DNA of 62,299 nucleotides, counting the filler, from Rhizaria sp. SCN 62-66 (lineage: Eukaryota): NCBI GenBank assembly GCA_001724265.1. It is 5 parts of 5 records of this genome, joined end to end, with 100 filler letters (N's around TTAATTAATTAA, not from the genome) between each part and the next. Parts side by side here need not be neighbours in the genome. Positions count along the whole stretch, not along the records: positions 1 to 8,940 come from MEDY01000578.1; positions 9,041 to 23,745 come from MEDY01000579.1; positions 23,846 to 32,778 come from MEDY01000580.1; positions 32,879 to 53,064 come from MEDY01000581.1; positions 53,165 to 62,299 come from MEDY01000584.1. One strand, written 5' to 3'. Below are positions 4,301 to 59,810 of the stretch, in pieces. The position numbers and the translations under genes are program-made. Below the pieces are notes generated by a model, which did no database searches, was not told where the DNA came from, and saw only the letters and a program-made list of their open reading frames with translations. Position 1 is the stretch's first letter. Every line of letters starts with the position of its first letter.

Positions 4301-7300
4301 CTGAGCAATCACCGTTGCCACCGGTCCCCAGAAGTTTAAGTTCTCTTCTTTGCTCAGCGTGTGGGTGACTAGCTGGCTCTGGCGAAAATAGACGTATTCG
4401 CCTTCAACAGAGTACAATCCTTGCGTGCGAATAGTCTCAGTCGTTTGAAAATTATCAACCTGAAGGATGTCAGTGGCATTCTTTCGGAACCATCCCTTCC
4501 TGATACGGTACGTCACATCGCTGTGCGTTAGAACTTTATTGCTAGTGTGGCATGGCATCATTTGTGCAGAGGCAACAAGCTGTCCCATCTCAGGAGGGGG
4601 TGCTGCTAGTGGCACGAACGAGTCTCCTTGACGGCGGGACGCGAGGAAATCGCACTGTACCTGGTTCAGACTCAATCCTGGGACGACTGCGACTGAAATA
4701 GGGACGGCCAGAGTCGTAGTGAGTTTTCCCACGACAGTGTTACGATATGGCGCACCGGAACCGCCATTATAAAGGCGGTCACCTCCACTCGCTGTGATCT
4801 GTCCACCAAGTTTGTTGTACCATTTGATCGCCGTCATCTGGTTACCGTTAATGTCAGTCCACAAATAAGGGTCGGAGATGCCGCGCCGACCGCCGAAGGC
4901 AACGGAGGCATCAATGGGACCGATAGAAATACCGATAAAAACGTTTTTTCCCTGTTCATTAACCGTGAAAACACCTATCAGCAGCGTTCCAGTCGAATAA
5001 ATGAATAAACCGTGATGAGATATCTGGAAAGCAATACGCATGTCAAACAAAGCAAAGTGCAGATATAAAACAAAAGAACAAGAAAGAAAATAGATGCTTG
5101 ATATCAAACGTACCAGAGCAAAATCGAATATTTGTTGACCTGCCACCGAGACTCGCGGAGACCAAAGGAAAAACAACTACGCTTGCCTGAGCAGTGGCCA
5201 CTCTCGCAAACACAATGGGTTGGTTGAAAAGGCCCGCACGGTAGAGTTGCGTTCCCCATGAGACTGAGGCAGAGATGGTACTTGCAAGAATGCGACTCGC
5301 AATATTAGACACCACATACGAAGCGACTCGCTGAGCAGCGCTGTGAGCAGCGGCACGGACATCGCCTTGGAGCAAAGCAAACGCACCGTCAACGCAAGCG
5401 TCTGTTGCAGCACTCCCGAGTCCAGATGAAAGCACAGAGGTGCTTTTTAGCCACGAAATCATCGTTTCACGAGCAATGACGTTGACAACCACTGATTTAG
5501 CAGCATTAAGCACGCTCACGCGACCATCAGCTGTAGAGATTATGTTGGAAAGGATCGTCGCTCCTCCTTGAACAGCACCATTCCAGAGCTGGTTGGTGAG
5601 GTGAGGACTCAGCTTGACTTCGACATTCGGAGAGGAAAGACCCCCACGGGACCCAATTGTGCGTGTGGTTGTAATATCGAGAAAAGGTGTGCTAGTAATC
5701 TCAGTCTTGCGTGTGTGAAGCGATGCAGCTGAGTTTGCTACAATGTCATTCAGTGACGAGCCTGAAGCACCAGAAGCAGACACATTGGTGACTGTGTCTG
5801 TCCGTCGCCTGTGAAACAAGGAATAGACGCTGGCGGTCATTCTTTGCTGCAGCTCAGCTTCCATTGTGCCTTGACTGCTTACACTCGTAGACATAATGCC
5901 AGTGTCTACGTCGAAAGCATCAGTTTGTGTGCGCGTGCCACGCTCCACAGTAACTCCGCCAAACGCCTCGGCATAGTTGAACCCGAAAATTGGAATGTAC
6001 TCCATATCGTTCGCCTGCTCAGCAACATGACGGGCGCCAGCAGTAGAATAGGTCGGAATAACACCATCAAGTAAGCGAGGTCGGGCAGCTGCAGCGACAG
6101 GATCAGTCGTCGAGTAAAACCCGCGATGCGATGTCACCTCCGTGTAGCGTCCTTGCCAGTCACACGAAAAACGGTTTGGCAATAACAGTCCGCGACGATC
6201 GCCCCAGTACACCCCTCTTCTCTCGACGTTGAGTCCGTGACGATCAACACCATTGGCTTGGTACGTTTGATAGAAGCGCTCTTGCGTTGCCACGGACCAC
6301 TCTTGGGAAGCGTCGCTGAGCAGCGCCGGGAAAGAAGGTAGTTGAGATGGAGGAGCGGTCACAACAGCAGCCATGCTTGCCACAGTGACGTTGGGCATTG
6401 GAATCGGCGGCGAATGGGAGGGGTCAATCAGCCCGTGCGCGTGAAAAGTGCCAGTGGCAGTGGTGCGAAAGAGAGTTGTTAGACCCTCACGGCCCGTCAT
6501 ATAAGCAGATTCAATCGAAGACACCGCTCCGTTGAGCAACAAAACTGAAGGTGATCCATCTGAATTTTGGTAGATACTTTGGTTTCCGACGCGAAAGTGA
6601 GAATGCGTGTTCAACGCTCCCTCCGTGCCGGTGTTGACGCCAGAAACTTGTACGACTTGAGAGAGGGAGTGCATGCTGAGCGCGCCACCAGGAGCAGCAT
6701 CAGCGTGCGTCACAAGACCGACATTTGAGTTAAATACCCCCATGAGCACAGATACAGCACTGCCATCCCGGTGCGTGTGCCTCGCCTGTGCATCCGCTTC
6801 ATAAACTCCAGGAGCACGGGACGCAGCACTATCAAAGTTGCCCGTCGCAACTGGTTTGGTTGTGCTTCGAGTCACAGAAGCAGAACCACCAATCCATGTT
6901 GCGAGATAAACATCCGACTACGACCTAGCGCCAGCAACGCCCGTAACTCTCTCAGCGAGGGTGGCGCCAGGTGGAAGCGACAAGGAGGGGTGGCGGGGAT
7001 GACGCTGTTGTTCAGAGCTACAGTCGCGTGACCAGAAACGGGAGCGCATGGGGCGAAGACTGCCAGTGGTATTAGCTTGATCTCTGCGCAGGACAGCCTC
7101 GGCTGCCCTCTGTCGCAGTTGTGGGACGCGAAGCGAAGTCTCAGTCTGTAACCTGTTGACATCAAAATTGGACGTGGCTACGTGCAAGACGTGAGGGTTG
7201 GACAATCCAAGCCGCCTGAGTGCCGCCACGTCTTGCGTCGCGTCCATCGCTGAAGTACGACGGAGAGTGAAGACAGGGCCGCTCATGCTCTCCAGGGTGG

Positions 7301-8114
7301 TGGAAGATGAGTAGTTGCGGAGAGAAGAACGACAAGAAGGGAATCCTGACATATTATATTCGGTCATTGATTTGTGAAGAGGAAACACGTTAATTCTGTT
7401 TCCGATGCCTTGAAAGACAAACTGTCCATTTGTGACCGCGCGTTCAGAGGTGGAGATAACGAATCTTCCCCGTCTTGCTTGAGATTGACTCGACTCTTCG
7501 TATGAGCCAGCTCCAGCTCCTGCCAGAAACGATTTCATAAAGGAAAATGTCACTGAAAGCCCCTGGGCCTGCGCATCCGTCGCTGTCGACGAAAGAAGAT
7601 AGGCTGAGCTTGGTGCGACGGTGTTGATACCAGCATACTCCACCCCGACTGTCCAGTTCGGGTCGGGATTGGTGGCCAGGTAGTTATAGGGATTTTTTTG
7701 GCGATCCATCGAGAAAAGCATGCCTCGACCAGAGAAAGACCCGTTAACGTAGTCAACGGCGCGTGGGACGACAAGATGGGAGTCTACGACGAATGGGAGG
7801 CCGTATCGTTGAGCGGAAACGGTGAGTGCAAAAGAAAGTCCTTTGTCAAACAAATGAGGATCACTGCGAGCAAAGTCAGTAGCAGCCCTATAGGCGTGAC
7901 GTAGCGCATGAAGCTGCTGAGTCTTGCCTGACATATGTGCAGCGAAGTCGAGTGCCATGGTGTTTCGTTGAGTGTCAAGAGAGTGGCGAAGGTGGTCGTT
8001 GATGTCACCATGCTCAGCCAGGGGGTCATATCGCCTACTCGCGTAGTAGTCGATGGTTCCATCAACGATAACTGGGGTCAAGACGCGGTTGACGCCATCC
8101 ACCAGGGAGTTCAT
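1333..8114 (-). CDS. Giant orphan protein (~2,170 aa), 2 introns, one in-frame TAG; Ser/Thr-rich regions plus hydrophobic helical blocks
   Basis: ORFs 6918-8114 and 5043-6875 share a frame and are separated only by TAG 6918-6920. Introns GTACGT..CAG 5113-5024 and GTACGT..TAG 4153-3997; the second joins …EALQW|GGRYIYIAG… in phase into ORF 1333-3903. One unexplained frameshift near 5115-5180. Ends TGA. Confidence 0.65.
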
Positions 8115-8771: not shown

Positions 8772-8940
8772 GTCACTTTTTCACTGTGGTCGTCGGTCAA
8801 AAAACGGATTTGCCCACCAATTTGCAGTCAAACTAGGTGCGCTTTGGAGGAAGATCTAACCGTATCAAGACCGTTAAGTTCGTGTATGCTTGGGTGTGTG
8901 GTTTGTTGGATGGGTTTTATGTTTCGATTTTTATTTTTAT

Positions 8941-11856: not shown

Positions 11857-14034
11857 TCAATTGTTGCGCGCTTGACGAGGGCTGACAGCGCCACTGGCGG
11901 CTGCAGTGCCGGCGCAAGCCTCGACAAGCTGCACCACAACAGCCACAACGCTGGTACTCGCTGCGTCCACAACCTAGATGCAAAGAAAAAGCAACATAGA
12001 GCGCAACAGGTAATATCAGATTGGGGAGGGTGAGCCAAATGTGCGTCGTTTCAGACTAATACAGTGGCATATGTCGAGAAAGAAACAACAAAAACAATAC
12101 ATAAAACAAGTGATAACTCAAGAAAACAAAAATAGATTCGCTCAGGTCATGGCGGTTGTTCGTAGACGTACCATAGCGCTGACGACGACCGCGAGCGCGA
12201 GCGGTGCGCCGCGCTCATCCGCGCCGCGCCACAGCACCGCGGCGTCCGAGCCCGCGGCGCTGGCCGCACACATCGTCACCGCCGCACCCCCAGAGCCTGC
12301 AGCGCCCGCGGACGCGGCTGCGGCGCGGAGAGAGGGGAGGGTGACCGTGAGCTGCGCGGCGGCGGGCAGCGTGGCCGCCACGCCGTCCAGCGTGGCCGCC
12401 GCGGGCAGCGGGCCCAGCTGCACGCCCGCGCGCAGCGCAGGAACACCCGCGCCCGAAGCCCCCGCCTCGGTATTAAGGGGGGGCGCGGGGACGCGGACAG
12501 CGCCGCAGTAGGCGTTGAGCACGGCTGGGAGCCCGCCCGCGCGTCGCGCCGCGGCGGCCACGGGCGCGGCGGCGCCGGCGTCGAGGCCCGCGGTCGGCAG
12601 CTGCTGCTGCTGTTGCGGCGCGGGCGCGGCGGCTGACGCAGGCACGCGTGCACCCGCGGCAGCGGCGGCGGCGGCGGCGAGGGAGTTCGCCGAGCGTGCG
12701 CCCGGAAAGCGCAGCGGCGTCGCCAACTCGGACGCCATCGCAGGAGGCGCAGGCGGCGGCGCCTCACCACCACTGCCGCTGTCGCTGCTCTTGTTGTTGT
12801 TGTTGTTGTTGCTGCTGTTTCCGTCTGTGGCGTTGTCACGGTCGGCAGCGAGGAGCGCGGCGGCGGTGCGCGCGATCGCGCGGTCCGGGCTCACCACCAG
12901 CAGCACCTGATCCAATACCCGCACCCATGCGCCGCCGCAGTCGCCACTCTCAGTCGCGACCGCCGCGTTCGCGCCAGCAGCAGTGTGGGCACGGGCTGCG
13001 GTCAGGCGCGCAGCGGCGGCGGCAACGAGCGCGGCGGCGGCGGACTCGGCGCGGGCGACTGCGGCGGCGCGGGCGGCTGAGGCGGCGCGGAGTGAGGCCG
13101 CGGCGGCTGTGCGCGCGGCGGCGTCCTGGGGCGCGGCGGCGGCGTCCGCGGCGGCCGTCTCGGCGGCCTCGGCCTCGGCGGCGGCGCGCGCGGCGGCGAC
13201 AGCCGCGGTCTCGGCCGCAGCGACCGCGTCCGCAGCAGCGGCGGCGACTGCAACGGCGGGGGCGACGGGTGCGAGAGCGCGCAGCGTCTGCGGCAGCGCG
13301 GGCGCGAGGAGGCGTGCGGGGAAGAGTAAACGCAGCCAGAGCGCGGGTGCGGGCGCGACGAGCGCGAGCGCGGGGGGCGCGAAGGCGGCGCGGAAGGCGG
13401 ACTGGGCATGGTGGAACAGGGGCTGAAACAGGGCCGCAGTGTTGGCGGGCGAGAGCAGGGAGCAGGGCAGCGCGGAGCCGGGCGCGGGCGGCGCGGGGGC
13501 AGGCAGCACCGGCAGCGCGGCCGGGGAGTCCACGCGCACAGTCACGCTCGCGCCGGAGGCGCTGGCGTTGCCACTAGAGACGGAAGTGCCTGAGGTGCAG
13601 TATGTGGTGTTGGAGAGCGCAGCACGCGCGAAGAGGGTGTGGAGGTCGCGCAGGACGTGCACGGCGTGCTCGGCGGGGGTAAGAGGAAGCGCGTCGCTAA
13701 CGGCGGTGACCTCTTCGCGCGTGAGGCGCGGCGCAGAGCCCGGGAGCCCGCGCGCGCGGCTCTTGGCGAGGGCGAGCTGGCGGTAGAAACGGCGGCGCTC
13801 AACTACCCACCAAGTTAGGTACACCGCCAGGAACGCCACCATCCACACCATCGCGCCCCACAGCACGGGGAACTGCAGCTAAGTCAGCGTAAAAGATAAC
13901 AGCAACATACAACAGGGGTAGCGTGAAGAGAGTGAGCAAGAGAATTGGGAAAGTGTGACGAAAGGAGATTCAACAAGATGCAGCTGTCGATAAAGTTATG
14001 AGCTCAAACGTACCTGCTTGGATGCCACTGCCAT
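11857..14034 (-). CDS. Ala-rich membrane-anchored protein, 3 exons (14034-14014, 13872-12172, 11973-11857)
   Basis: MAVASKQ|FPVLWGAMVWMVAFLAVYLTWWVVERRR gives an N-terminal TM helix. Introns 14013-13873 (GTACGT…GCTGAC…CAG) and 12171-11974 (GTACGT…TAG) are both phase 0. Ends TGA. Confidence 0.65.
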
Positions 14035-15337: not shown

Positions 15338-16042
15338 ATGTCGTCCGATGATGTTGACATCAGCAAGGTGCGCGAGCCCTCTTGCATTCTTCCTTACGTC
15401 TTCCTTTCCGGTAGCGCCACCGCCGTGTACGTCCTCTCGTCAGCTCTGTCTTTCGCGCAGTCCTTTTCTCTCTTTGTTCCGTGTGCATGATCGATATAGT
15501 CTATGTTTAACACTGCGTAGGGCTCTCGACTCATGTTTTTGACTTGCTCTACTTTCTTGTGCTGTTTTAGGTGCCTGCCGATGCTGAAGAAGTTCGGGAT
15601 CACCACCGTGATCAACCTCACTGACAAGGAGTTCGAGTACCCGCACAAGGACAAGGTTACCTACCACGGCTTCGACCTCGAGGACGAGGCCGAGTGCGAC
15701 GTTTCCGAGTACTACGACAAGCTCTTTGCCATCCTCGCCGGCGTCAAAGAGAAGAACGGCAAGGCGCTGCTGTGCGACCTCGCGGGCACGTCGCTGCCGT
15801 CAACAATGATGGCGGCCTACATGCTGCAGGCGTCTAAGAAGCAGGAGAAGTACCTCCCGCTCAGCAAGGCGCTTGCGCACATCGCCAGCAAGGACCCCGT
15901 GCTGAAGCCCTCGGAGCACATGCTGCTGCGCCTGTGCCTGCTCGAGGAGGACCTGTACGAGGAGTGCTCCGTTTCGCTCTCGCGCCCCGGCGGCGCGCGC
16001 GGCAAGGGCGGCCGCGGCGGCAAGGGCAAGCGCGGCAAGTAA
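15338..16042 (+). CDS. Dual-specificity phosphatase-fold protein, probably catalytically dead; intron 15427-15570
   Basis: EPSCILPYVFLSG, LKKFGITTVINLT, DLEDEAECDVSEYYD, MAAYML and KPSEHMLLRL follow the DSP pattern. The active-site loop reads LLCDLAGTSLPS. Gly/Arg/Lys-rich tail. Confidence 0.85.
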
Positions 16043-16547: not shown

Positions 16548-19500
16548 TCACCAAGCTTGCGGCACAGGGCCGCCGCGCCTCTGACCCTGCATGTGGCTCT
16601 GGCCCTGGCCTTGGCCTTGACCGGGGCCCGGGCCCGGGCCGTAGCCAGGCCCGGCGCCAAGCCCGGGGCCAGCGCCAGGGCCAGGGCTAGGGCCGTAGCC
16701 GGGCCCCGGTCCGGGTCCGTAGCTGCCGCCGGGGCCAGCGCCAGGGCCGCCGTAGCCGTAGCCACCGGTCATCGGACCGCCGTTCATGACGAGACCGCTG
16801 GTAGGGCCGTTGTGGGGGCCGGGGCGGCCGCGCGCGGGGGGGCCTTGCGGATACGCGCCTGGACCGCCACTGCCGCCGCTGTCGTAGCCGCCGGGGCCGG
16901 GAAGGCCGCCGGTGTGGTACACGGCGCCGGGACCCAGAGGCGCGGGCGGGGCGCTCACACCGCGCACCAGCGACCCAGGGCCACCGTGGCCGTAGCCGCC
17001 GGGGGGGCCGCCGCCGCCGTTGCCGTAGCCTCCGGGACCAGGACCGGGGCCGTAGCCGCTCTGAGGGCCGCCGGGGCCTGGAGGACCGTAGTTGTTGTAG
17101 CCGCCGCCGACATTATAGCTGCCGTTCGGAAGGCCGCCGTTTAGGCTGCCGCGGGAGTTGGGCGGGCCGTAGCCCTGTGGGGGAGGCCCCTGCGCAGCGA
17201 AGCCGCTGTTGGGGCCCGGGGGACCGTAGCCGCCGCCGAGGCCGTTGGGGCCAGGGGCGGGCGCGGGGCCCCAGCCGCCTTCGGAGGGCGCGGGCACGGG
17301 CGCGGCGCCGGTGTGACTGCGCGGCCGTTGCTGCTGCTGATGCTGCTGGTGCGGGTGCAGCCCTTGCGGTGGAACGACAAGAGAGACGCCCGAGGCGCCC
17401 GCGGGGCCTACGGGGCCAGCGAGGCCGGCGGGCCCGGCGGGCGGACGGCGCGCGGCCGAGCCCACCGGCGGCGGCGACCGCGGCAGCCCAGAGCCCGCGC
17501 GCTGCATGCCCTGGCTTTGTTGCGGCAGCGGCAGCGGCTGCCCGCGGGCCATGTGGCCGCCGGTGGGCCCCGGCTGGCCGGGCGACGGGCCGAACCCCGC
17601 CGCGGCGGCCGAGGCCGCGGTGGCGGACACGGCGCGGCGCGGCGCGGGCATCGGCGGCGTCGCCGGGGCCGCAGCAGCAGCAGCGGGGCCGGAGCCCTGT
17701 TGTGCGCCGCCGACGGGCTGCGCGCTGCGGGGCGCGTAGGCGGAGCGCTGAGCGCCGCGGTTGCCGAAGGCCGACGCGCGCTCGAGCTCGAGCAGGTCCT
17801 GGGCCTGCGCGCCGCCGTCGCCGTCACCGTCACCGTCGTTGGCGCGGCCGTGGCCGACGCCGCGCTCGCGGGCGGCGGCCGCAACGGCGTGCGGCGGCGC
17901 CGAGCCGGCGGGCCTGCGCGTCGACGACGATGAGGCCCCCTTAGACGCGCTGACGACGCCCGCCGAGGCTGCCGCGGCGGCCGCGGCGGCTGCGGCGCCG
18001 GCGCCGGGCCCCGCGGAGGCTGCGGCTGANCGCGGTCGCGACCGCGGTGAGCGCTGTGGCGCGCGCGGGCAGGGCCAGCTCGCCGGGCCCCGCGCTGGCG
18101 CCGCCGTTGGCGGGGCTGCTGGGGCCGAGCGTGCCGCCCAGCGCGCCGCCGCCGCGCACGGGCATGACCGTCTGCGCGGGGTCCGTCAGCGCCGACGGCG
18201 CGCGTGCGGCCTCGAGCAGCGCGCCGCGCAGCGCGGCGTAGCCCGCGGCCGCGCTGGAGAACACGGCGGGGTACTGCAACGCCGCCGCGCCCGCGCCGGA
18301 GCCGCCCGCCGCGCCGCCGGAGCCCGCGCCAGAGCCCGGGAGCGTGGCCGACAGCGTCGCGCCCGCACCCGCGCCCGCGCCGGCGCCCGAGGTGAGCGTG
18401 GCCCAGGCCTCAGAGCGCAGCGCGCTGGTGGGCTTCTCCAGCAGCTTGGCGAGCGCGGCCGCGAGCACCGTGGGCATCGCCGCCAGCGCGGCCACGCTCG
18501 CGGGGTCCGCCGCGGCCGCGGCGTCACCACCGGCACCGGCGAGACTGGAGTCGCGCCGCTGCAGCGAGCTGGGCCCGCCCCAGGCGGCTGCGCCGCCGCC
18601 GGCACCGGTCGCACCGGAGCGCGCGGCGGCGGCAGCGAACAGCTGCGCGTGGTGCTGCGCGAGCGACAAATAGACTTGCGCGGGCACGCCCGTCATGCCG
18701 CTCACGGTCGCGGACGACGCCGCGGCCAGCTGCGCCAGCGGCTGCGCCAGCGGGGAGCCGTGCTGCGCCGCTAGCGCGCCCGCGGTGACGCACACGAGCG
18801 CGCCGCCGCCACCGCTGGCACTCGCGCCGCCGCCGCTGCCCGCGCTGCCGGAGCCGCGGCGCATGGTCGACGAGACAGCGGCCGCGGCGGCCTTGGCGGC
18901 GGCCGCGGGCGACGAGCCGAACGGGGCCGGCGCGGGGGCCGGAATGGGCGCTCCGCCGGTGCCCGCGCCCGCCGCAGCGGCCTCGACCTGGCCCCAGCGC
19001 GCGATGCAGCGTGCGACAGCGCCAGCGCCCCAGGCGTCGGTCAGTGAGGCCAGCACGAGGCGGCCAGCGGCGCGCACTTCGGGCGCGTCGCCCGTGCACG
19101 CGCGCGTGACCGTGAGCAGCAGCCGCGGCAGCAGCGGCGCGAGCAGCGGCGCGAGCGGGGACGCCAGGGACGCCGCGGGCGGGGGCACGGCCGCGGGCAA
19201 CGGCGCGGCGCCCGCCGCCGCGTCGGCGGGCGGCAAGAACGCGGCGTGCGCGGCGATGAAGGCGCGCGCGCGGGCGATCTCGCCCAGCGTCCAGGGCCCC
19301 ACGGCCACAGGTGCGCCCAGCGGAGCCGCGGCGCTCGGCGCGGGCTGCGCCAGGAGCGCGCGCGCGAGGGGCGCCGTAACGGAACGCAGCAGCGCGGGCG
19401 GCGCGCCCAGTCCGGCCTTGAGCAGCAGGAAAAGCATGCCGTCGAGCTCGCAGTCGCGGCCGCACACGTGGCCGCGGCGGCGCGCGACGGCGGCGCCTGC

Positions 19501-37820: not shown

Positions 37821-38735
37821 CAGTCGATTGTACAGATAGTGAGCGAAAATTTACAGATAGTGGTTGTTTTTTACGGTTTTTTAAACGTCGTCTGATTATT
37901 ATTTGAATACATTTTATATGTCCATCTCATCTTAAATTACACAATTTATATTTTTTTGCGCTCTCTTGATTCTATCCTAGCGAAAGATCGGAAAGGTACT
38001 TTCGCGACTTTGACTCCTATGCCGCCGAAGATGAGGACGTCTTCGAAGCCTCGCGAGTCTTAAGTCGAGAGCCAAAGGCGCAAATCAACTTTGTAAGTCA
38101 CTCCAACGGCGTAGTAGTCGCGGCTCATTCGATGCCGTTGCGTTCAAAGACTTTTTGAGCGTATTGTGCACCAGATGTGTCTCCTGCACCCAAGTGGTAC
38201 TCCTACTCTTGTGCTTGATAACGCACACATTCATCGCACCAGCATCATCCAACCTCTAATTAAGACATGCGGTGTAACTGTTGTGTATCTTCTACCCTAT
38301 TCATCTACTTTTAATCCGATCGAGAACCTCTTTTGGGTTATGAAGAGTCTGATCAACAAGCGCTGGCTGCCAAACCCGCACACTGACAAGGTACAAGTCC
38401 TTAAACTTGTTGAAGACGTCATCCGGGACCTCACGGAAATGACAAGGACCCACAATCTTGCTCGCTACTACTCGCACATGCGCAACCAAGTCAAGGCCAT
38501 CGGGCTGAGGGGTGAGATTACGTATCCCTCGGAGGATGTGTATGATGCACTCGATAAAATGAATGCAGCTAACAAGGCTAATAAGGATAATAAGAACAAT
38601 AATTAATGTAGTATATATAAAAATAGTTTCATTATTAATTACAATCGTTTTATTGAGATCGGCATTTTTGAATCTGAAAATACAAAAATCCACCACTTTC
38701 TGTAAATTTTCGCTCACTATCTGTACAATCGACGG
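37821..38735 (+). mobile_element. Tc1/mariner-IS630 superfamily DNA transposon, internally deleted (915 bp), inside an intron
   Basis: 43-bp terminal inverted repeats (37821-37863 and 38693-38735, 2 mismatches), TA on both flanks (37819-20, 38736-37), internal transposase remnant. Confidence 0.93.
38166..38606 (+). pseudogene. DD34E transposase C-terminal fragment
   Basis: LVLDNAHIH…YLLPYSSTFNPIENLFWVMK with 34 residues between D and E. The N-terminal HTH and first catalytic Asp are not visible. Confidence 0.9.
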
Positions 38736-42614: not shown

Positions 42615-43799
42615 GTCGATGATAAATGTGACGCCAGTGGTGTGGGCCAGACAGATGTGTTAACGCTCGTCAAATGACCTCGAAGAGCCTGAACCTCGGT
42701 ATGGGTGCCTAGAAAGGAGAAAGTTTAAGAGCATGCAAATGTGAGCAGTGTGGTAAGAACATTGTGGTGTCAAAGCAATCTCCGAATTATGGTGCAATCC
42801 CACCGTAGACATAGTATGTTGACAGTGAGCTCGAACTTCCCAGAGGCTTGTATGTGAGTTTGTTTGCTTTGGTCGGCGGACTGGCTGGCTAGGAGGCAGG
42901 CAGGCTGGCAGCAGCCGGTGCGATTTTTTACGAACCGCTTACAAACCACTCCTAGGTTTTGCCACTCGATGCTGCATGCTTCTGAATCCCTTTTTTTACA
43001 TCCCTTTTGTATTGGAGTCACGACCACATGAGCGGTACGTAAGAATTTTACTGAACATGGACTGTCCGACATTTTCGCGATGCTTTTCTCGCTTGATTTC
43101 GAAGCATTCTTTCATATGACTCCATTTTTAACTCAAGTAATTGCACGTACAGTCAAGGTTCCCAGAAAGCACACAGCAGAGTTTTTTTTAATTATCATAC
43201 GTACACACCCATAGATGAATTCATGTATTGATTTTATCAGGACTATGCCGGCTAAGTTCAAAGAGAATGCAAGAAACTGTTCCGTACCTGCTAACGCTTT
43301 AATAAAGCACCGATCTAGATATAAAATTTGCTCTTGAAAACAAAAACTCAAGTTCGGCGAAAAAAAAAAATCCGGTATTTGAGAACAAGAAGTGGAAACG
43401 AATTGGGGTGGTATTTGTAATTTGACACCTCCCAGTCAAGGTCTTCCATCGTTTCACGTAAAATACGTAGTACATGAGATCACCTCAAGCTGGTAGGAGA
43501 ACAAAACACTCAAAAATTAAATAGTCGCCGGTCATTAAAGTAATTCTTATGATTCTTGTTCAGACGGAAACAAGCATGTGTCGACTAATCACACACTGCC
43601 TTCCGTTGTTACTTAAAAGTCAGCGTGGCTATACTGATGCGGCTGCAGCTACTGCTGCTCTTGCGACTGTCACCACGACTGCTGCTGTACGTTGATATAC
43701 TGCAGACCGTTCGCGGGTCGGAACATGTGCATTTGCATTTGCATTTGCATTTGCCTTTGCGCTTGTGTGCTGACGCATGCGCATGTGATTGCATTAAGA

Positions 43800-46700
43800 C
43801 TTATTTATCCTGATTTGCATGGACAGGTGCTTGCATACTGACAGTGCTGAACATGCGCGCGACATGCATGTGCGATGAGTGTACGGGGGAGTTCATACCG
43901 CCATGCCTCTGAGCAAGACTGCCGGGAGAGGTCAGCCGTCCGGGGGTGCATATTTGGGAGTTTGGCGTTGCAGGGGAGTTGCGAAGCGACTGGTAATAGT
44001 GCAGGTGCAAATGAAGTGGAACTATTTTATGCGGATGCGAGCCCTGGTGTGTCGCCAATTGCTGGTGCAGGTACTGGATGTGCGTCTGTTGGAGCGGAGA
44101 ACAATCAAGTGTCGCAGACGGCGAGGTAAGCGGGTGCCGCCGAGTGAATGACCAACCAAGACCCCCAGATGTGGCATTCATACGACGAACCAAAAGTGGA
44201 CTACCTGCAGAAGTCAAACGGTTGAGCAAGCATTTGCTGCTTTTGCAGCAGTTGCTGTGAATTGTGGTTTTGCAGTGTTGCCGCGATCCGCGTCGCTGCC
44301 GTATCAGCAACAGCCAATGACGGCAAAGCGGCGGTGGAACCATCGACCCAAGGTACGTCGGCGCCTAATTTGAGCAAGATGCTTTCTTCTCAGCAAGACG
44401 GCAGTATCCCATGTTTGATGATGCGCATGCATTTGCTGCAGAGGGACAACTTCACCCCCCAAGGGCAGCATGGCGCTGGCCATGGACGTATTGAATGGTG
44501 GGTTGGTCAGTAGAGCTGTTATGGATGTCGTTGGTCTCGTGGGAGCCGTAGCGATCAGACATTGGGTGATAGAAATGCTATGTAGCGAAGTTCCCCGTGT
44601 TTGGCATACTTTCGTTGCCATTAACGATAGCACCGGGGCACCACGCAGCAGCATGCATGAAACCAGTCATATTATGCACATCGTCAGAGGATAAGCCGAG
44701 TGGTTTGGCGACAGTGGATATCGGAGCCAAATCGGGAGGTGAGAAGTCGCTGATTGAGTCAGTTGGGGATCCCGGTTTGGAATAGCAAAACACAAAAGCA
44801 AAAATACAAACAAACAAAAAAAGACGGGAGGGGAGTCACACATGCAGCACAGGTGGGTCAGTTTAACACGAATTTGAGGAAGGATCACCGATTCACCGCT
44901 AAAACAGTTGTGTGTGCGTATTGCTTCTTTTGTCTGTGTGTGCGTGATATATTTACGACTACAACCCAATGGACTAACAAACGCACAGATTAATATCCGC
45001 ACATTGAACAAATTACAGTTTCACATTTAATCAATGATACAAAAATGAACAGGTGTATGATAGGCATACGAGCCCGGGAAGATGCCGCAAGGATGCACAG
45101 CCGGTGACAAATGCAGTAATTTGCCCAAGCGTCTCCTGTCACTGGCACTGGGGGCAGCTGGAAGTGGCAACGACGCTGACAACATGATACGAGGGCCAGG
45201 ACTGAGACTGGCCGAAAGACTTCGCTTCGCAGGCAACGAAGGGGACACCTGAGACTGCGACTGCACCAGCAACTGTGCATCGGGTTCCAAACAAAGCTAC
45301 TGGCGTTATAACCTGGCATCGCAATGTGAGGCGCATCGCCAGCGCCGCTGCTGTGCGAAGGAACAGAGACTGCATGCTGCATGCCATTACCAAGCGGCCT
45401 GTCACGGCTGTTGGCATTGGTAGCAATGGCGTTGCTGCGATTACGGCCCTGGACGTCGCTGTCACGTCCTTGTTACGGCATCATGAGCTGCCCATGATCT
45501 TGACTTTGTCGCCGTTGATCCGGCATGTATCGTTGCTGTTGTTGTTGCTGTTGTTGTAGATGCTGCTGCTGTTGCTATTCTTGCTGGTATTGTTGTGACT
45601 GCAGCTGCAACAAGGGTTGTGCCTGGGAGGGCGTTGGCAGCTGCACTCCAATGCAGGCATAGCGTGCATCGGCAAAAGTTGACAAGGGTCCCGGGCCTGT
45701 GAGAAACTTGTCCAGCCCACTTACACAGGACTGATAATCAACCCGCGCACTCAACTGGCTACTGGAGGTAATGCTGTCTCTTGACACCAAAATGTCGGGG
45801 AAACTTGCCTGTGAGCTGAAAGGAGAAATGTAGTGGTTGTTGCTCATCGTTGTCGTCAATACCTGCGGTGACAAACAGCCTTGCTCTTGTTGTTGAGAAG
45901 ATATCATGCCCAAATGGTGAGCCGTAACCCCGTGCGCTTCCAAGGACGGCAAAACAGGATACCTTGAGGGAACTGTCTTCACTGGTCCCAACTTTGGTGA
46001 TGCTGTGACCACGCTATCATAACTGCAGCTGGAGTGATCGTGCCCGCACGCAGTGCACCTGCCACCCCGAGCACAGGTCTTTAATTTGCGCGGAGGCGAG
46101 GACGAAAGTTGGCTGAATACGGTCAGATTCGGGGTCTCAACGACAACGGCAGGGCCGACGTCGCGTGCGGGAGCCATGGCTGCCTTCCGCCGAGCGGCTG
46201 CCTCAGCTACCGGCGGCGCGGCTGAGGATGCGGATGAGTCGCCCGACGTGACGTTTGACGAAGCAGCAGCGGAAACAGCATGGGGTGTTGACTGCCGACA
46301 AAGATCCACATGCAACGTACAAGCTTTCACTGAGGAGTGAGCCTCACATAGAGCTGCAGGCGCAGCCAATATGCTGCAGCTGCAACAGTCACTGACGTTC
46401 TGAACAGAATCATCGCAGTTAGGGGCGAAAGGAGCAGCCGGCATTACCGGCGGGTTGGCATAGAGTTTGCTTATCCATGGGTGCCAGCGTAACATCACCA
46501 CCAACACGTCACCGCGTACGGGGTCAAACATGAGGCCGAACGACTGTGGCACGCAAAGACAGTGTGGGGCAGATGACATCGCACGACGGGCTGGCGTACC
46601 AGCCTCTGGCACATTTGGATTATTTGCGGATCGGAGAGACGGGATGGACTGAAAGAGAGCATGTACAAGTAGGCTGGCTTTCGGTCAAATTTCTCGGCTG

Positions 46701-49700
46701 AGACATAACGTTGCTGTCCACAGAGACCTTGAGCCCGCCAGAGCGGGCAACATCCACAGCGGCCTCACGCATTTCGCGCAGCACATCGCGCATCGGAGGA
46801 TACATGGATTTGCGCAGAGGCGTTACCTCGGAATAATCACGTACATGTACACGTATATCGTCATCACCCGTAGAATTCATGCCTTCGATGCGAAGGTTAG
46901 AGTTCGAGCTTAGCGCGGAGATCTAAGTGAAAAATCGAGCAGCAGCCGCCGCACCTCGTGCGGATAGCGCCGGCAAAATGCGAGGAACGCGTTGGACTGA
47001 TATCCACGTTCGTCACTCGCATCGGAACCCATCTCATTGAATAGTGCGTGCTTAAATGGTGCATGTTGCGATACATCTGCTTTGGAAGAGCTATCAGTGC
47101 AGCCAAAGCCCACAGAATTATTTGCCAAGACGGCAGAGTCATCAAGGATGGGGCAAGTACAGGGAGAGAGAAGGAGAATAAAGGGGTTCGCCTTGGGGTC
47201 GAGGCGTGGCCTGTCCTCACCTGGTGGAGCAAACACAGAATCAGATTCCAAATGCGAGTCTGCACAATTTCCGAACACAGTGTCAACAGCTCGGGCCTCT
47301 GGACACACACGAGGACTGCTGGCAACAATGGGACCCACCGGATGGTTCCAGCTAAGTTTCCCATTCATATGGGGGGCATCAACCGGCACCGCCGTCATTG
47401 CTGCGACTGGCTCGACCGCTGTATTCTCTTGTGCAATCATCCCAGATCCGATTCGAGTCGTACCCGGCTTGGCGCCCATCGTAGTTTGTGACGAACCTGT
47501 CGAAGTGGTGTTTGCGTAAATGTCCGTATCCTTGGGGTTGAGTGGCACACGCAGCCCTGCCAAGACATAAGCAACGGCATCCGGGCTGTTCGCCGCCCTA
47601 TGCAGGCCGGGACATCCACCAACCTCGGCCGCTGTTCCGGAACTATTCATTGAGACTGGTTCTGCGCCCATATCTTTCATTGTGGGATTCATAGCGGTGT
47701 TGGGAATTTTACCCACGCCTGAAATATTTAATGTAGCACTTTTGCGATTGTTGATCGAGTAAAGACAATCACACCCTTGAGTCGCACACGCAGAGTTGGA
47801 GACGCAGCAGTGCGTGACATTTTTGAACGCGCCTCCGAGACCGTGAACCTTCACGTCGCCATCAGGAATATGACTGGACGAAGTTGCCGGCGAAAGCGCG
47901 CACTGCGTGCGAGTGTAGTGATTCGCACGACTCAGAGTGTGCGTCGCGCTGTCGATGTCAAGGAGTGAACTTGCCATGGGAATTAGATGCGCTCGGACAA
48001 CGGGACGAGCGGCCGCCGACTTCACTGTGGCAGGATCCGAAGGAGACTACGACGGCATAAATATCATTGATGCTGTAGCCGACGCTGTCGCTGAAGAGGA
48101 ACTGTTGGACATTTGGCGCAACACTGTCGGGACAGCTCCCACGAGGCTCTGGCAGGAGATAAAGCAAGGCATCGGCGCAGCGATTGGCGGCGTGACAAAA
48201 GTGCATTCTGACGAGACTACGTCGCTGCTGTTATTTCCACCAGTGCAACCTCCATTCAGATCGCCATCGCTGGGGTCGTCACCACGGCACGCTTGGTCGA
48301 GCTTGAAACTCTCCCAGCTGACATCACTTTCGCTCCTATAGCCTCCGTCATTGCCGCTCTCATCCGCATAATCATCACTTGCGGTACTAGACTAGTGCGC
48401 CGCCGCTCTGTTAGGGGAACACTTGGTGATTACGCCGGACAAGTGATGCAAGTTCCGTGTGCTAATACTTCCATCATGAGCAAGGGCGCCAACATGGACT
48501 CCCAAGCCATCGCGATGCAGGGATTGCATGCCCACATTCGCGAAAAAGTTGGCAACACTCCCCGATGACAATGCTCTGTTGAGGGTCGCAACAGCCAATG
48601 AGGGCAATCGTGTCGCAGATGAAGGCTGCGCTCCGATGAGAAAGCTATTCACGATCTTGGGCAAGACACCGTCTGGTCGCTTGCGATTTGAAGGGGACGT
48701 CGGTGGGGGCCCGCCTAAGGCCTCCCTATGCGCAACGCCCCCTGTACTAGAGCCAGAAGTTGCCATAGTGCGTAAGCCAACGCACATGCCACTCCGCTGC
48801 GAGGTGGCGCCAACGACATGACGGAAGGGTGTACGAGCCGCTGCACTGCGGCCAGAAGACGCAGACAGAGGCAGGCACAATGTTGCTGCTGCGCCTGGTC
48901 CCTGGCCCTGCAGACGGGGATGGCATGTGCCATGAGAAATTGCATCGCGAGCGTGCGAAGTTATCGGCCCTGAAGTCGTCAGAGTTGTGCTGAGACCACC
49001 ATGGCGGCTGTGCACTCGAGAACCGACGGCAGGGCCCGACAACAACGTTAGCGGGTCACCCTTGCTCGCATCTGTCGTGGACGCGTGACTTGAAGTCACC
49101 ATACGGGAGGAAATCACTGCTGTTCGAGGGCCAACTTCACAAGGTGATGTTGGTTCGCGATGGTCCAGCTTGAAGGTATCAGTCACCTGCTGTTCCGCCG
49201 CCCTCGCTTGTGAATACGGCACATTTATGGTGCTGTGATTAGATGTTGCTGCGGCAGCAATGGCATCGGACACCCCCGTAAATTGGCCGATCAAGGAGCC
49301 GGTGATGGTTGCATTGGTGTTGAGAGTGGCAGTGCAGCCCGCCAACGGAGGAACTGGCGGAGGCGGAAGCGGCGTCAGCTGCGTTTGCTGCGACTGGCGC
49401 GCCTCCCCAGCCAGGCCCGACCCACTAGCTGCCCGATTCACTGTCGCATGCTGAGGAGGAATGCCCAAACAGCACAAGGAGGCGACAGAAGAGAGGGGCA
49501 TTGGCGCAACAGGGGCAAGTCCAAGAGCCTCTAGCATTCGGTACGTGACTAGTTGGCCGTGGAGTCCTTGTAGGGCCAGGGCAGCTGCCGCCGCAGCGAG
49601 GCGTTCTGGCACGGCACTGCCTTTACCGTGGACGCCACCTGCCACATTGGCGTCATCAGTGGCGTCCGCGTTTATGTAAAGGCTGTGCAAAGCTCCGCAC

Positions 49701-50539
49701 CTGTAGTGATGAATGCCCTTCGAAGACGGAGTGGCCGCAACAGCGGCGGCGGACGTTAACCGAGAGCAAATGACGCCACCGGCAGCTGAACACACTTTAC
49801 ACAGCTCAGCATGGAGGCAGCCGTGTGCATCGACCTCAGCGTCGTTCCGGCCGCAGCAAAGCAAGTGTGGCGACATCCTTTCTGCCGCAGCCACTGCAGC
49901 GGCCGCAACAGCAACCTCCGCGTCCGTGACCACTCCGGCGACCGCCGTGGCGGCTGCAACGGCGCGCGCGACTTTGCGCGCATGTGACTCGAACAACACA
50001 CAAAGGCGCGCCTTGAGAACAGCATCTCCTGATGGCCGTCGGGGTTCTTTCTAGCCTACCGGGTATCCACGCGCGTCCAGAACCGAGCCGTAAAACTGAG
50101 GGAGGCTGCCCGAACGCGGGCATACGTCAGTTGGAAGCGGATCTGACTCGGAGGGTGGGACTGTGGAGGTTAGCGGCTGCGTCGCCTGAGTCGCTGTAAA
50201 AAAGCTGTTGGGGCGACGGATTGGGAAGCGTGGAGGAACGGAGCTGCCGGGAGAAACAGCAGTGAGTTTGAATGCTGGAAGTGCCGACGGGGTCATGACA
50301 ACGGGGTTGCTCAGGACATCATCGTTTTCGTCCTCACCAGTGCCGTCGTAATTCAATACCTCCGAAGGTCCACGATTTCTTGCTGCACGCATCTCTGCTG
50401 CACACATTCTGCATGGCTCGCGTGTGTGCGCCGATATCTCGCTTGGGAACATGATCGCTGGGATTATGGAGGTAGGGGTCTTTGCGTGATTGTGCAACCG
50501 CGTCGAAAAATATGCCAACAGCCTCGCTAGTCTCAGCAT
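43800..50539 (-). CDS. Long low-complexity (Ser/Ala/Pro/Gln-rich) gene of unknown function; 3' part fragmented
   Basis: 50539-46910 is one frame of ~1,210 codons broken only by TAG at 50051, 48392 and 48047. The same frame resumes at ~46680 with TAG at 45575 inside poly-Gln. Further frameshifts or introns lie below 45300, so the 3' boundary is approximate. Confidence 0.55.
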
Positions 50540-51159
50540 GACCTGGTAATTGCTCTGAAAGTGCGTGAGTCTTGCTGAGAGTGAACCGATGATTGTGCTA
50601 ATTTTTCATTGGCACCTCAGTCATGGGCGCCTATGCACCCATACGACGGGCACAAGGATCGCCCGCTGTGAACACAAAATGAGAGCTGCTCAGGTCATCA
50701 CCGGTGAAGTGGCGCTGATCAGCGAAGCGCCTGCGGGAGCAGTTGCGACTGTGGGGTGGCGCGGTTGCTGCAGTAGCACTAGGCTCATCGCCTTTCGCGA
50801 GCACGCTGTTTGGCATGGGGGCAGCAGCATGTCGGAATGTGATGTGCCTTGATGAATTATGATGCGGCATGTTGTCATATTCACCGACGACAGAGACTGG
50901 CTGCGCGCGGAGATTGTTGCGGCCAACTTTTGTCTGTACGCAACCCATTTCAAAGTCACCAAACACAAAACGACCACGCGGCCGATCTGTATCATCAAAC
51001 AGGGCCTTGACAGCAAGTGCCAAAGCATTCCGACGCGCATCATCAGCTGGGACGTTTGCGCTCACACGGACAGGAAATGAGAATCGAATGACACTTGTTA
51101 AGTTCTTAAACGTGACCGATGGCGAGTAGTAGTCGAGCGACATCACATTGTAGACAGTT

Positions 51160-53064
51160 GTGCCGGGACATGCCTCGCACTGGGCACTGCCTTCATCATC
51201 CGCGTAAGTGTCTGGGGCACACTGCATGCTCGACTCAGCGCGCTCTTGCGCGAACGTGCCACGCGGGCAGCGCACGCACGTCTGATAGCCAAGACCGGAG
51301 TACGTGCCGATGGGACAAGGACTGCAGTTGGCGGCACCGGTGCTGTTGGAATAGAAGCCTGGCTGGCACTGGCGACAGAGAGCCTGCGACCAGAGATCGT
51401 TGTAGTATCCCGGCTCGCACGCCACGCAGCGATAGTCATCGTTGCGTTGGCCGGGCGGGCACTGTACGTACGAGAGCAGGATAGTCTCACGTGAGATATC
51501 GCCATAGCGCTGCAGCAGTGTCACCGCGCGGTCCACAGATGAGTCTGCCGGCGTTGTGCAGAGGACCTCGTGGTGAGGGTCCAAAGTTGTGTGCGTGACA
51601 TTCGTACAAGTCAAGCCACAAATCGAAATAGTTGCACCAGAGCCACCAAAGTTGTCTCCGCGGAGCATGATGCGACTACCACCAAGGCGGTTACACTCCA
51701 TGATCACACTGGTTGAGACTTGTTCGCAGCCGCGAATCTCCGTGATGACAGGGATCGCATACGTGACACGATCACGAGACTCTGCGCGCTGCGAACCGGC
51801 CCTGATAATGAGCGCAAGACTTGAGCCAGACCCAGAGGGAAGGTTGCATGTTAGCATCTCATTTGAGTCCTTTTCGATCGAAGTGCATTGACGGCCACTC
51901 ACCATCACAGAGTGAGGTTCAAGGAAACCAGTGCCCGTAATCGTTAGTCGCACAGTGCCGCCGTCAGTCGGACAATTAGATGTACTTCCACGCGCAGTGT
52001 CATCAACATCACAGCCGTATACAGATTCAACGGTGGGTACCTGTGGGTACGAATATTTGTCAGTGGAGGAGACGCTGCGGCCCGAAATTGTAAGCTTGAA
52101 GAACAAATCAACAAGATTGACGTTGTCTTGAGTGCGGCAGACAAGATATTTGGCGTTGCTTGGTAGGTCGAAAGCTCGTCGTTAAAAACGCACTCGAATG
52201 GGATCGAATCGAAAGAATTTCTATGCGTTCAATTGAAATTTCAAATCCAATGTCCTCCCCAAGGGTTGTCATGCTGACGTAGTCGTTTGTACGCTGACCA
52301 GGACCAGCAACAGTGATGGTATGCAAAGATGACGGCATAAAATAGTGCTTTGGGTAGCTGATACGTACACGATTGTTGTCGCCAATATGTGCAAGGTCAT
52401 CAAGCGCCTCTGTGCCAGCCCAGTTCCAGTTCCAGGTGGAGCAATCAATATCAGCGGCAAGATTTGTCGCGCTATTACGTTGCACACAGAAGTTCTCCAT
52501 TGGTTGACCTGGCACTGGGGCGCGGACAAGGGGAACCAACTGCGCGGGGTACACTCGCGACGAGCGGCAGTGACACGCACGTTCGATTGGGTGATTTCAA
52601 CAACATAGCCGGTCCCATCTGTGACGTCGTATCCCGTGTAGCGCATACTGTAGCCTGTGTTGTAGCGGTACTCAACCCAAGATGTGTTCAACTACGGACC
52701 GTGATTGCCGTTGTTAGCTACGACGATTGTACTACCATTGATGTTAGTAGGGACACCGCAGTTGTAAGGCGAGCACGTCCGTGGTGAGGAAGACCATTCA
52801 CCAGTTGCTGTGCACGTGATAGAATCAGCTGCGTGGCTCACTACTGCGCCATATTCGCAGGTGTAGGTCGCAATAACACCATATACATTCATCAAAGTGG
52901 AGGGCGATTGCGTGACAGAGCCTAAGGAAACCTCAGTCAACGTTGGACATGGGCGGGGTGTGCAGCGAGGAACATCAACAGGCTGCCAGCCCTCAGCAAT
53001 GGTGCACGTGCGTGTCTTGTCACCAGAGTCGGTCGTCCACATGTAGCCATCCGCGCAAGAGTAA
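51160..53064 (-). pseudogene. Ectodomain fragment with sushi/CCP, IPT/TIG and GCC2/GCC3-type Cys-rich repeats; frameshifted and truncated
   Basis: ATYTCEYG…ITCTATGEWSSSPRTC (sushi), GGTVRLTITGTGF and GGSRIMLRGDNFG (IPT), CVACEPGYY…CQPGFYS…CPIGTYS…CPRGTF. Frameshifts near 52540 and 52160, in-frame TAG 52692-52694. Similarity stops after CEACPG. Confidence 0.8.
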
Positions 53065-57989: not shown

Positions 57990-59810
57990 ATGCTTCCGTT
58001 TAACTACGTCAAATTTTTCGAAGCACTCGCGGCTCTTATTTCTCCCGCATCATCCGTTGACGGAGTACAAGCTCTGAGGAGGATTACTGCGATCGAAGAC
58101 TACGATTTAAAAACTCTCACGGTAGCATGTCTTGACCACGGCGTATTCGACTGGCTTTTGCGGTCACTCGAGTACTGCGGAGACGCGGACGAACCTGAGC
58201 GAACAAAGGAGACTCTCTGGATATTCACGAATCTCGCCGTTACGTCCGAGGGCTGCACCGTGCTGCTTGAGCGCGGCGTTGCCGAGAAGCTCTGCTGCGT
58301 GCTCCACCTTGGCCAGCCCGACGACATCGTCGAGAACGCCCTCTGGGCGCTGGGCAATATCGCCGGCGAGGGCCGCGCAGCCGTTGAGTCGCTCATCGAG
58401 CGCGGGGTCTTCGCACACGTCTGCCGCTACATGACTGAAGTGTACCAGGCAAGCGGCCAGGTCAAGGTCGCGGTGCACAAGATCCTCGCTTGGACGATGT
58501 CCAACTTCCTCCGCGTGAAGCCCCCGCTGCCGTACAACATGACTGCGCCAGTGCTGCCGCTGCTCGCCTACGCGCTGCGCAGCTTCGCTCCCTTCCCGGG
58601 TCTCGAGGAAGTTGTCGTCGACACGCTGTGGTCGCTGTCATACGTCTTCCGCGAAGAGAGCGAGGGTGTGCGTTTCGAAGACCTGGTCGGCGGCGGTGAG
58701 ACGAGCGTCCTGTACTCTGTGCTGGAGCAGCTACACACCAGCCGCATGACGCGCACGCCCGCGCTGCGCGTGCTCGGCAACGTCGCCGCGCTCGACCGCG
58801 GCATCCCCGCGCAGGTCTTCACGGCGCCCGTGCTGGGGCACCTGCAGCGCCTCGCCGCAGGGTTGGGCTACAACGACACGAACGCCTTCAAGGAGCTGCT
58901 GTGGACGCTGTCTAACGTGCTGTCTGAGGGCCCCGAGGTGACGCAGCGCGTACTCGAGGTGAACCTGCTGCAGACGCTTGTCCCGCGCGTGCCCGTGCCG
59001 ACGCGCGACCGCAGCACCGCGACGCGCCTGTGGCAGATCGCCTCCGAACTCTCATACGTGCTGCGGAGCGCGCTGGCGGAAGACAACACGGGCGAGGGCG
59101 GCGCCGCGGTCGTCGCGCTGGCGCTGCTCGATGCGGGTGCGATGCGGTACTGCGCGCAGACGCTCGCTGTCGCCGCTCAGTTGACGGAGGTGTCGTCCCA
59201 CCAGACGCTGGGCCGGATCTTCAAGGCGGTCCGCGTCATGATCGAGTGCGGCGACACCGCGCCAGACCCCGCCGTGGTGACCGAGGGCTCGGCACCGCGC
59301 AACGAGTTCCTCGCGGCATTTTTTGCGGCACATGGCCAAGATGCGCTGGGGAAGCTGCTCGAGAACGAGAGCTTGAACTCCGTGGACGCCGCATACGAGG
59401 AAGCCATGGCGCTGAACAATCTTCTGGGCGACATTGTGGGAGACGTCGCTGCGACTTACTCGTCGGAGCCGAGCTCTGAGAACGAGGACTCCGACGAAGA
59501 CTCTGATGCATACGCGAGCGAAGACACCGATGACGGTGCTGAGGATGACGCGGGCGGGGATGCAACCGAGGGCAGCGATGACGACGTGGACGACGACGAT
59601 AGCGACGAGAGCGACTAGAACAGCAACGCGGCATCGGGCGGTGTGGATAGCCAGACTGAGCAGGCCGCCGAGGTGACGGCTGAGCAGGACAGCAGCGCGG
59701 GCAGTGATGGTGCTGCTGTTAATCCTGTTTCCATTGACGCTGTTGATGGTGGTGATGAGTCGCGCACGGCGAGCAACAAGGCGAACGCTGCACCGGATGT
59801 GCCCGAATGA
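57990..59810 (+). CDS. Importin-alpha-like ARM-repeat protein with long acidic tail (606 aa if TAG 59616 is sense)
   Basis: WxxxN ARM motifs LWIFTNLA, ALWALGNIAGE, AWTMSNFLR, DTLWSLSY, PALRVLGNVA, KELLWTLSNV. The acidic tail continues 63 codons past TAG 59616-59618 to TGA 59808-59810. Confidence 0.85.

Follow-up and report, generated by a model that had tools for sequence, protein, structure and literature searches.

UAG is probably read as a sense codon, most likely for glutamine (Gln), in five contigs deposited as Rhizaria sp. SCN 62-66 (GCA_001724265.1), and UAA and UGA serve as stops, which is the pattern of NCBI translation table 15; we put the probability of this reading at roughly 0.75. 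The window, i.e., the whole stretch of DNA that was analysed, has 62,299 nucleotides (nt) and joins contig 1 (1–8940), contig 2 (9041–23745), contig 3 (23846–32778), contig 4 (32879–53064) and contig 5 (53165–62299), with spacers of the form N44-TTAATTAATTAA-N44 at the joints. All five would belong to a single uncultured microbial eukaryote with a GC-rich, intron-bearing genome, which has been met repeatedly in metagenomes of wastewater and bioreactors. An earlier note on this DNA had proposed a sense UAG, with UAA and UGA as stops, from 12 in-frame TAGs, next to a single internal TGA (36866) and a single internal TAA (45473). All 12 TAGs and both of the other codons were found on the strands that it named, and the TAGs are spread over contigs 1, 3, 4 and 5. 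Its statement that coherent coding sequence lies on both sides was borne out for six of them (6918, 25108, 48047, 48392, 50051 and 59616), which belong to four otherwise intact genes, and is compromised for 35097, 35739, 37721, 44578, 45575 and 52692, which lie in decayed or weak loci. The proposed code as such was supported, and was strengthened by independent paralogue DNA from Joint Genome Institute (JGI) metagenomes, but the number of clean cases had been overstated.

Long and otherwise intact reading frames are interrupted by TAG

The orphan gene P1 of contig 1 (5043–8210, minus strand) is a frame of 1055 codons that ends in TGA and contains a single TAG at 6918–6920, flanked by stretches of 430 and 624 codons. 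When P1 was searched among 1.84 billion representative sequences, it matched only its own two fragments (residues 1–398 and 414–786), which are split at the TAG. Similarly, the frame P2 of contig 3 (24166–29805, plus strand) spans 1879 codons with a single TAG at 25108–25110, which is flanked by 314 and 1564 codons, and it ends in a TAA beyond which the DNA drops to 37% G+C. In the translation of P2, a hydrophobic N-terminal leader is seen by eye ahead of the TAG. Past the TAG come EGF-like Cys-rich repeats, the only membrane-span-like stretch of the protein (also judged by eye, and far from the TAG) and a tail. A search with residues 120–560 of P2 gave no match among the "near" lengths. The orphan gene P3 of contig 4 (46910–50605, minus strand) has 1231 codons, ends in TAA and carries TAGs at 50051, 48392 and 48047, which divide it into segments of 184, 552, 114 and 378 codons with no TAA, TGA or frameshift. 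The fourth gene, on contig 5 (57960–59810, plus strand), encodes an ARM-repeat protein with an importin-alpha-like fold, and its TAG at 59616 falls in the acidic tail with 552 codons before and 63 after it, that is, 64 codons ahead of the terminal TGA at 59808. The G+C content of this gene is 0.61 before the TAG, 0.62 between TAG and TGA, and 0.39 past the TGA.

Counted over 1023, 1850, 1209 and 606 codons, respectively, P1, P2, P3 and the ARM-repeat gene contain six TAGs, and neither TAA, TGA nor a frameshift was found. Frames of 1000–1850 codons that are free of TAA and TGA at 50–63% G+C cannot be explained by chance, and these clean TAG-bearing frames are kept open by selection. UAG usage is low, amounting to 7 per ~10,400 curated codons or ~2–3% of the Gln-type codons. 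When all six frames of the window were counted for stops with at least 100 open codons on both sides and a local G+C below 0.65, TAG gave 6 of 691 and TGA 6 of 1754. This count alone is not significant and is only suggestive, because the antisense frames of genes rich in G+C at third codon positions (GC3) produce long frames that are split by TGA.

Paralogues from separate metagenomes carry TAG and neither TAA nor TGA

A repeat unit at 33907–36184 (plus strand, contig 4) was present at ~10–20 times the single-copy depth and carries a small coiled-coil gene followed by a gene of ~450 codons, which had no Pfam match. Four database proteins are 74–83% identical to the window copy of this ~450-codon family. 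Gene predictions in databases, which assumed the standard code, break off exactly at TAGs, as seen for P0009/P0010, P0007 and P0008. Of the four family proteins, P0007 ends exactly at TAG 35739, and P0008 begins just past the column of TAG 35097.

Scanning JGI metagenome contigs with the family gave seven short paralogous loci (L001–L007) from separate metagenomes. No further DNA of the organism was found in two scans of genome contigs, made with the family alignment and with a Tc1-like transposase, or in one scan of viral contigs. When TAG was read as open, all seven JGI copies gave collinear frames up to the contig end or to the family C-terminus. Together they hold 14 TAGs in 9 columns and no TAA or TGA over 2428 codons. 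A neutral model with at least 328 substitution events expects 5.9 TAG, 2.2 TAA and 1.8 TGA, and the probability of seeing neither TAA nor TGA was ~0.018. Thus, in the JGI copies TAG accrues at about the neutral rate, and TAA and TGA are excluded. In the DNA-level alignment, all five in-frame insertions or deletions were multiples of three; lengths that are not multiples of three were seen only in the CT-rich spacer ahead of the frame (17 nt) and at the very C-terminus, where 55 nt are duplicated, and the frame also varies between copies in the tail of the coiled-coil gene. The TAG at column 62 is common to all four copies that cover the column, with the caveat that translation of these copies might begin at an internal methionine downstream of it. 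Between L003 and L006, 174 codons contain 12 synonymous and 3 non-synonymous changes and one TAG/CAG exchange; this pair shows purifying selection in TAG-bearing copies.

Other features of the family were noted alongside. The ~450-codon protein has "IDLRPSNV...DLEF" and "DLRPSN" motifs that look kinase-like by eye, and Pfam finds nothing there. The small coiled-coil protein has a hydrophobic tail, and L001 and L007 show an in-frame duplication of its coiled-coil part. The 55-nt tandem duplication (two copies, 90% match) was noted at the 3' end of the ~450-codon gene, at 35824–35931 (plus strand) and with L001, L004 and L006. It shifts the frame of the last codons and yields two C-terminal tails within the family, "...HPQHRHEAG...SSKGK" and "...TKMSR".

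TAG sites of contig 4 are identical across samples and one is covered by RNA

The region 42458–51009 was found in contigs of three studies (X1, X3 and X4) with 0, 0 and up to 3 differing letters, respectively, and the TAG sites of P3 are identical in all of them. X1 covers the region by a single contig of 8558 nt, and no allelic bubble or second allele was seen. A contig from a poly-A metatranscriptome matches 49899–50151 with 0 differences and spans TAG 50051. Further RNA contigs cover 47080–47368 in P3 and 46102–46314 in the gene that carries TAG 45575. DNA carry-over in the RNA library is possible, and where contig 4 lacks RNA cover, this is no evidence of silence. The TAGs of contig 4 are real and stable across samples, and are not errors. 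Editing of UAG in RNA was considered and rejected, as the sole RNA contig over TAG 50051 is unedited. Joints seen in the RNA contigs were likewise dropped as introns, being non-canonical and derived from paralogues.

TAA and TGA terminate the frames

Frame ends were tabulated for 13 window frames, 8 further frames (including the PTR2 gene of L006) and 4 family copies. All 25 end in TAA (14) or TGA (11), and in 21 of them at least 100 codons run up to the TAA or TGA without an earlier stop of any type. The claim of the earlier note that no well-supported gene ends in TAG agrees with this tally; however, the tally is in part circular, since TAG was treated as open when the frames were defined, and four of the 25 have a TAG close to the end, as weighed below. 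The window family copy and L002 share the C-terminal "SSKGK" and then stop at TAA and TGA, respectively, and therefore UAA is not reassigned. Furthermore, the G+C content falls right after TAA and TGA stops. The next base is G in 7 of the 11 TAA stops whose downstream bases were seen, often as TAA-GC (e.g., 29803, 46910, 39449 and 61003, and 3546 of L006), and this may be a preferred termination context.

Glutamine is the favoured amino acid

CAG or CAA stands opposite TAG in 3 of the 10 family columns, namely 142, 238 (5 CAG) and 272 (4 CAG), and at both sites of the coiled-coil gene. A paralogue contig has CAG at the position of TAG 35097, and TAG 45575 is bordered by runs of Q. The single TAG/CAG difference between L003 and L006, whose other changes are mostly synonymous, weakly favours Gln. 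Given reassignment, the balance tips modestly toward Gln.

Proposed mechanism and alternative explanations

Decoding of UAG but not of UAA requires the anticodon CUA, as argued in the relevant part of PMC5304391. UAG here would be decoded by a tRNA with this anticodon, probably derived from tRNA-Gln(CUG), and the release factor eRF1 would recognise UAG poorly. UAG is a rare codon, used more often in orphan genes of weak bias and in the fast-evolving multi-copy family than in GC3-rich genes. A narrower version, in which an undescribed non-ciliate lineage that has been abundant in wastewater reactors for a decade is independently at an early stage of UAG-only reassignment to Gln, with UAG still scarce and avoided in GC3-rich genes and with possible termination at UAG near some 3' ends, is tentative, and we hold it at a little under even odds.

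Several observations weigh against sense UAG. Six of the 12 listed TAGs sit in decayed or weak loci. No TAG was found at conserved columns of P2X, Kish/DUF1242, DSPc, PTR2, the ARM core or TIG, where only about 1–2 would be expected in conserved domains at the observed density. No tRNA gene was detected in the window or in the seven JGI loci, no eRF1 gene in the 62-kb window or the JGI loci, and no rRNA among the sequences of the window and the loci. The cross-sample and RNA comparison covers contig 4 and sets contigs, not raw reads, side by side. The codons opposite TAG also include AAG, GAG, TCG, TTG, GAY, GGG and TAC, which form the mutational neighbourhood of TAG in a weakly constrained family, and therefore the amino acid is not fixed.

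Others of these opposing points are those expected if the standard code were in use and the TAGs were nonsense mutations, mostly CAG to TAG, in recently formed pseudogenes and in repeat copies that are dead, within a genome where many genes decay. TAG is denser in the low-GC3 orphan genes (5 of 4003 codons) than in GC3-rich genes (2 of 6426), a pattern that relaxed constraint would also give. Between subfamilies of the multi-copy family, the pairwise ratio of non-synonymous to synonymous change (dN/dS) is ~1 (0.8–1.7), and its variable columns comprise 39 with synonymous changes only and 148 with non-synonymous changes, so that the family is diversifying or includes dead members and individual copies could be dead. 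The commonest partner of TAG is CAG, and the PhoPQ_related copy, the window family copy with its 40-nt deletion and a sushi-repeat copy are visibly decayed. Decay, which the earlier note had raised as its alternative, does account for about half of its 12 sites, i.e., those in the PhoPQ_related copy, the deleted family copy, the sushi copy and the TAA-bearing gene. It is nevertheless unlikely as the general explanation. From codon content, only 0.51–0.60 of nonsense changes are expected to be TAG, yet TAG is the codon at every one of the 9 family columns and the 6 clean-gene sites. Neither the ~4,700 clean-gene codons nor the JGI copies contain a frameshift, every in-frame insertion or deletion in the JGI copies keeps the frame, and the L003/L006 pair shows the excess of synonymous change described above. 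Under decay, moreover, 4 of the ~13 large genes of the 62 kb would all be pseudogenes of very recent origin that have acquired TAG alone and are fixed across three studies. The signature of decay, i.e., mixed stops and frameshifts, was seen only in the PhoPQ_related copy and the window family copy, and was not seen in P1, P2, P3, the ARM-repeat gene or the seven JGI copies; the dN/dS of ~1 between subfamilies is the single feature in keeping with decay.

Context-dependent stop codes are found in Condylostoma and Blastocrithidia, and UAG here might likewise be ambiguous, being read through inside genes and terminating in some contexts, e.g., near the 3' end. Four of the 25 frames have a TAG within the last 100 codons, which also counts against plain sense UAG: the ARM-repeat gene, the gene with TAG 45575, a TIG/ephrin-receptor-like family copy (50334–52181, minus strand) whose first in-frame stop is TAG 50631, and L006, which ends in TAG, one more codon and TAA. 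The low overall usage of UAG would suit ambiguity as well. However, coding character continues past the late TAG in three of the four, as poly-Q in the 45575 gene, as G+C content in the ARM-repeat gene, and in L006 by comparison with L001, which has TCG at this position and the same TAA. The remaining one, the TIG copy, is a fragment of its family that has been rearranged, and it resembles other copies only as far as 51166. It is the sole candidate for a TAG terminator and may indeed end in TAG, and the numbers are too small for testing context. We regard ambiguity as less probable still than decay. An artefact, by which the pattern would arise from chance frames in GC-rich DNA, from assembly or base-calling errors or from a bin of mixed organisms, is largely refuted and has very little probability left. 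Many spurious long frames do come from the GC-rich stretches of contig 2, and the six-frame count is not significant alone, but an artefact does not yield frames of such length at 50–63% G+C, the same sequence in contigs of three studies, contigs linked to one another by repeats and paralogues, and paralogues from separate JGI metagenomes. UAG as a sense codon thus remains the preferred reading.

Two further candidates were rejected. Alternative codes are known in giant-virus metagenome-assembled genomes, as described in part of PMC13524828; giant-virus origin was set aside because the DNA has a GT-AG intron, a transposon and gene families of cellular type. C-to-T hypermutation resembling repeat-induced point mutation would also give TAA from CAA (109 CAA against 201 CAG) and TGA from TGG and CGA.

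TAGs in decayed or weak loci

The PhoPQ_related copy on contig 4 (36596–39451, plus strand) has an intron at ~37247–37409. Its frame is interrupted by TGA 36866 and TAG 37721 and changes near 37085. The Pfam profile is collinear across two frames (profile positions 2–116, then 121–165, 171–276 and 287–367); TGA 36866 falls inside the first match, and the frame changes between profile positions 116 and 121. Judged from this sequence, the copy is a pseudogene, and therefore TAG 37721 is uninformative. With its TGA, frameshift and TAG, this visibly decayed pseudogene of contig 4 looks different from the clean frames. An additional TAG at ~38826 is the 3' end of an intron. The next PhoPQ_related intron contains a Tc1/mariner-like element at 37812–38744 (plus strand) with a DDE_3 transposase fragment (E = 4.6e-12) and inverted repeats of ~61 nt (38684–38744 versus 37872–37812, 90% identity); repeat pieces related to this element also occur on contig 5 and in L005.

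Compared with its paralogues, the window copy of the multi-copy ("kin") family (34582–36008, plus strand) is missing 40 nt at 34938/34939 and is therefore probably dead; TAGs 35097 and 35739 belong to this copy. TAG 44578 falls in a short frame of 127 codons (44455–44835, minus strand) whose coding status is unsupported. The orphan gene at 45473–46684 (minus strand) has TAG 45575 within a poly-Q tract and TAA 45473 33 codons later, past which the same frame stays open for another 160 codons. The last of these loci is a copy of a sushi-repeat multi-copy family (52269–53064, minus strand) with TAG 52692, where the L006 paralogue has TAC (Tyr). This copy has Tyr at one position where the L006 paralogue keeps Cys, and it is possibly degenerate. 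Directly upstream of the sushi paralogue in L006 and in frame with it, positions 1120–1350 (plus strand) gave a weak match to the rve integrase core (E = 1.9e-5, below the Pfam cut-off), which hints that part of the sushi family may travel with a retroelement.

Comparison with known codes

Reassignment of UAG alone is already known as such, and newness here depends on the lineage. As far as the passages of PMC5304391 and PMC11687900 drawn on here go, nuclear codes that split the meaning of UAG and UAA are few: UAG alone is Gln in Iotanema spirale, Protocruzia tuzeti and two phyllopharyngean lineages, Leu in the rhizarian exLh and a phyllopharyngean, and Ser in Scotinosphaera, and one oligohymenophorean ciliate is also named. 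Iotanema spirale (Fornicata; Panek et al, 2017, PMC5304391) resembles the present case in having UAG alone reassigned, UAA as stop, Gln as the likely amino acid and the same CUA-tRNA logic. The Iotanema evidence, in the portion of that paper concerned, is UAG at conserved columns of many orthologues, in contrast to the paralogues and orphan genes used here. Unlike Iotanema, the present organism is GC-rich, has GT-AG introns and lives in wastewater reactors, and nothing ties it to fornicates.

Phyllopharyngeans inhabit activated sludge. The present contigs are multi-gene and have a Tc1-like transposon, introns of at least 165 nt and a GC3 of up to 0.9, features unlike those of typical ciliate macronuclear DNA. 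The codon table of Blepharisma nuclei (NCBI table 15, TAG = Q) is the same as that proposed here, and UAG is likewise Gln in Protocruzia tuzeti and the two phyllopharyngean ciliate lineages, according to the sections of PMC11687900 on these taxa. The rhizarian exLh (Sainouroidea) also has UAG alone reassigned with UAA and UGA as stops, and its UAG is rarer in highly expressed genes, as UAG is here in GC3-rich genes (PMC5304391, in part). It differs in reading UAG as Leu, whereas here CTG or TTG faces TAG in only 3 family columns as against 3 family columns and 2 coiled-coil sites for CAG or CAA, and in its abundance of UAG (384 in 71 genes, in the same part of PMC5304391), which is rare here. 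Amoeboaphelidium protococcarum and other codes with UAR = Gln (as cited in PMC11687900) share the change from stop to Gln in a non-ciliate. In Amoeboaphelidium both UAA and UAG are Gln, as that citation has it, whereas here TAA ends 14 of the 25 frames, is exchanged for TGA at one shared C-terminus and is followed by a drop in G+C.

In a full-text literature search that left subscription journals outside, no report of such a code from a wastewater eukaryote was found. If the proposed code is correct, this would be another UAG-only case, possibly an independent one, in a GC-rich genome in which UAG is still rare, and it would bear on how stop codons are captured and on the usual coupling of UAA and UAG. 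If the early-stage version also holds, the organism would offer a natural snapshot of stop-codon capture in a habitat that yields DNA, RNA and proteome data. When genes of this organism are predicted under the standard or the bacterial code, they are cut at every TAG, and therefore its proteome would be mis-predicted in wastewater catalogues; genes of the window itself are entered in databases as such TAG-cut fragments.

Origin and gene content of the contigs

The gene set of the window is eukaryotic and includes a P2X receptor, TIG/ephrin-receptor-like repeats and the ARM-repeat protein, whose importin-alpha-like fold is predicted. Pfam matches in the window were to Kish/DUF1242, a DSPc phosphatase domain, the Tc1-like DDE_3 transposase, sushi repeats and PhoPQ_related, and Rfam gave no family in it. 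The intron at ~37247–37409 is a canonical GT-AG intron that is AT-rich inside. Exons are GC-rich, with GC3 up to 0.9, and introns and spacers have 35–47% G+C. Repeats and paralogues tie contig 1 to contig 3, contig 3 to contig 5, and contig 4 to contig 5 through L005; contig 2 has no tie to the other contigs and also has none of the listed TAG sites. When 43500–53000 was used as a 9.5-kb query, 85–92% of the sampled words were found in bioreactor and wastewater metagenome runs of three studies from 2015 to 2025. The best named relative of the P2X protein is from a chytrid (31% identity), and all closer relatives are metagenome proteins; the chytrid match may be taken as a faint hint of Holomycota.

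A repeat of 180 nt (93% identity, in inverted orientation) is found near the end of contig 1 (8592–8771) and at the start of contig 3 (23846–24025); the assembly probably broke there because the repeat is dispersed. On contig 2, 17941–23745 (minus strand) is an open frame of 1934 codons with ~80% G+C and a GC3 of 0.90, whose product is extremely alanine-rich and has no Pfam match; the frames at 12145–13995 and 16551–18029 (both minus strand) have a similar character. The DSPc domain at 15491–16039 (plus strand, E = 9.7e-9) reads "LLCDLAGTSLPS" at the usual position of the catalytic loop, and, judged against the motif expected there, this protein is possibly an inactive pseudophosphatase. At the end of contig 5, the plus-strand frame 60754–62298 given by the open reading frame finder is probably spurious. 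The minus-strand frame at 61003–62298 has G+C values of 0.59, 0.43 and 0.87 at the three codon positions, which is the coding signature of this organism, and it ends in TAA, after which the DNA falls to 38% G+C.

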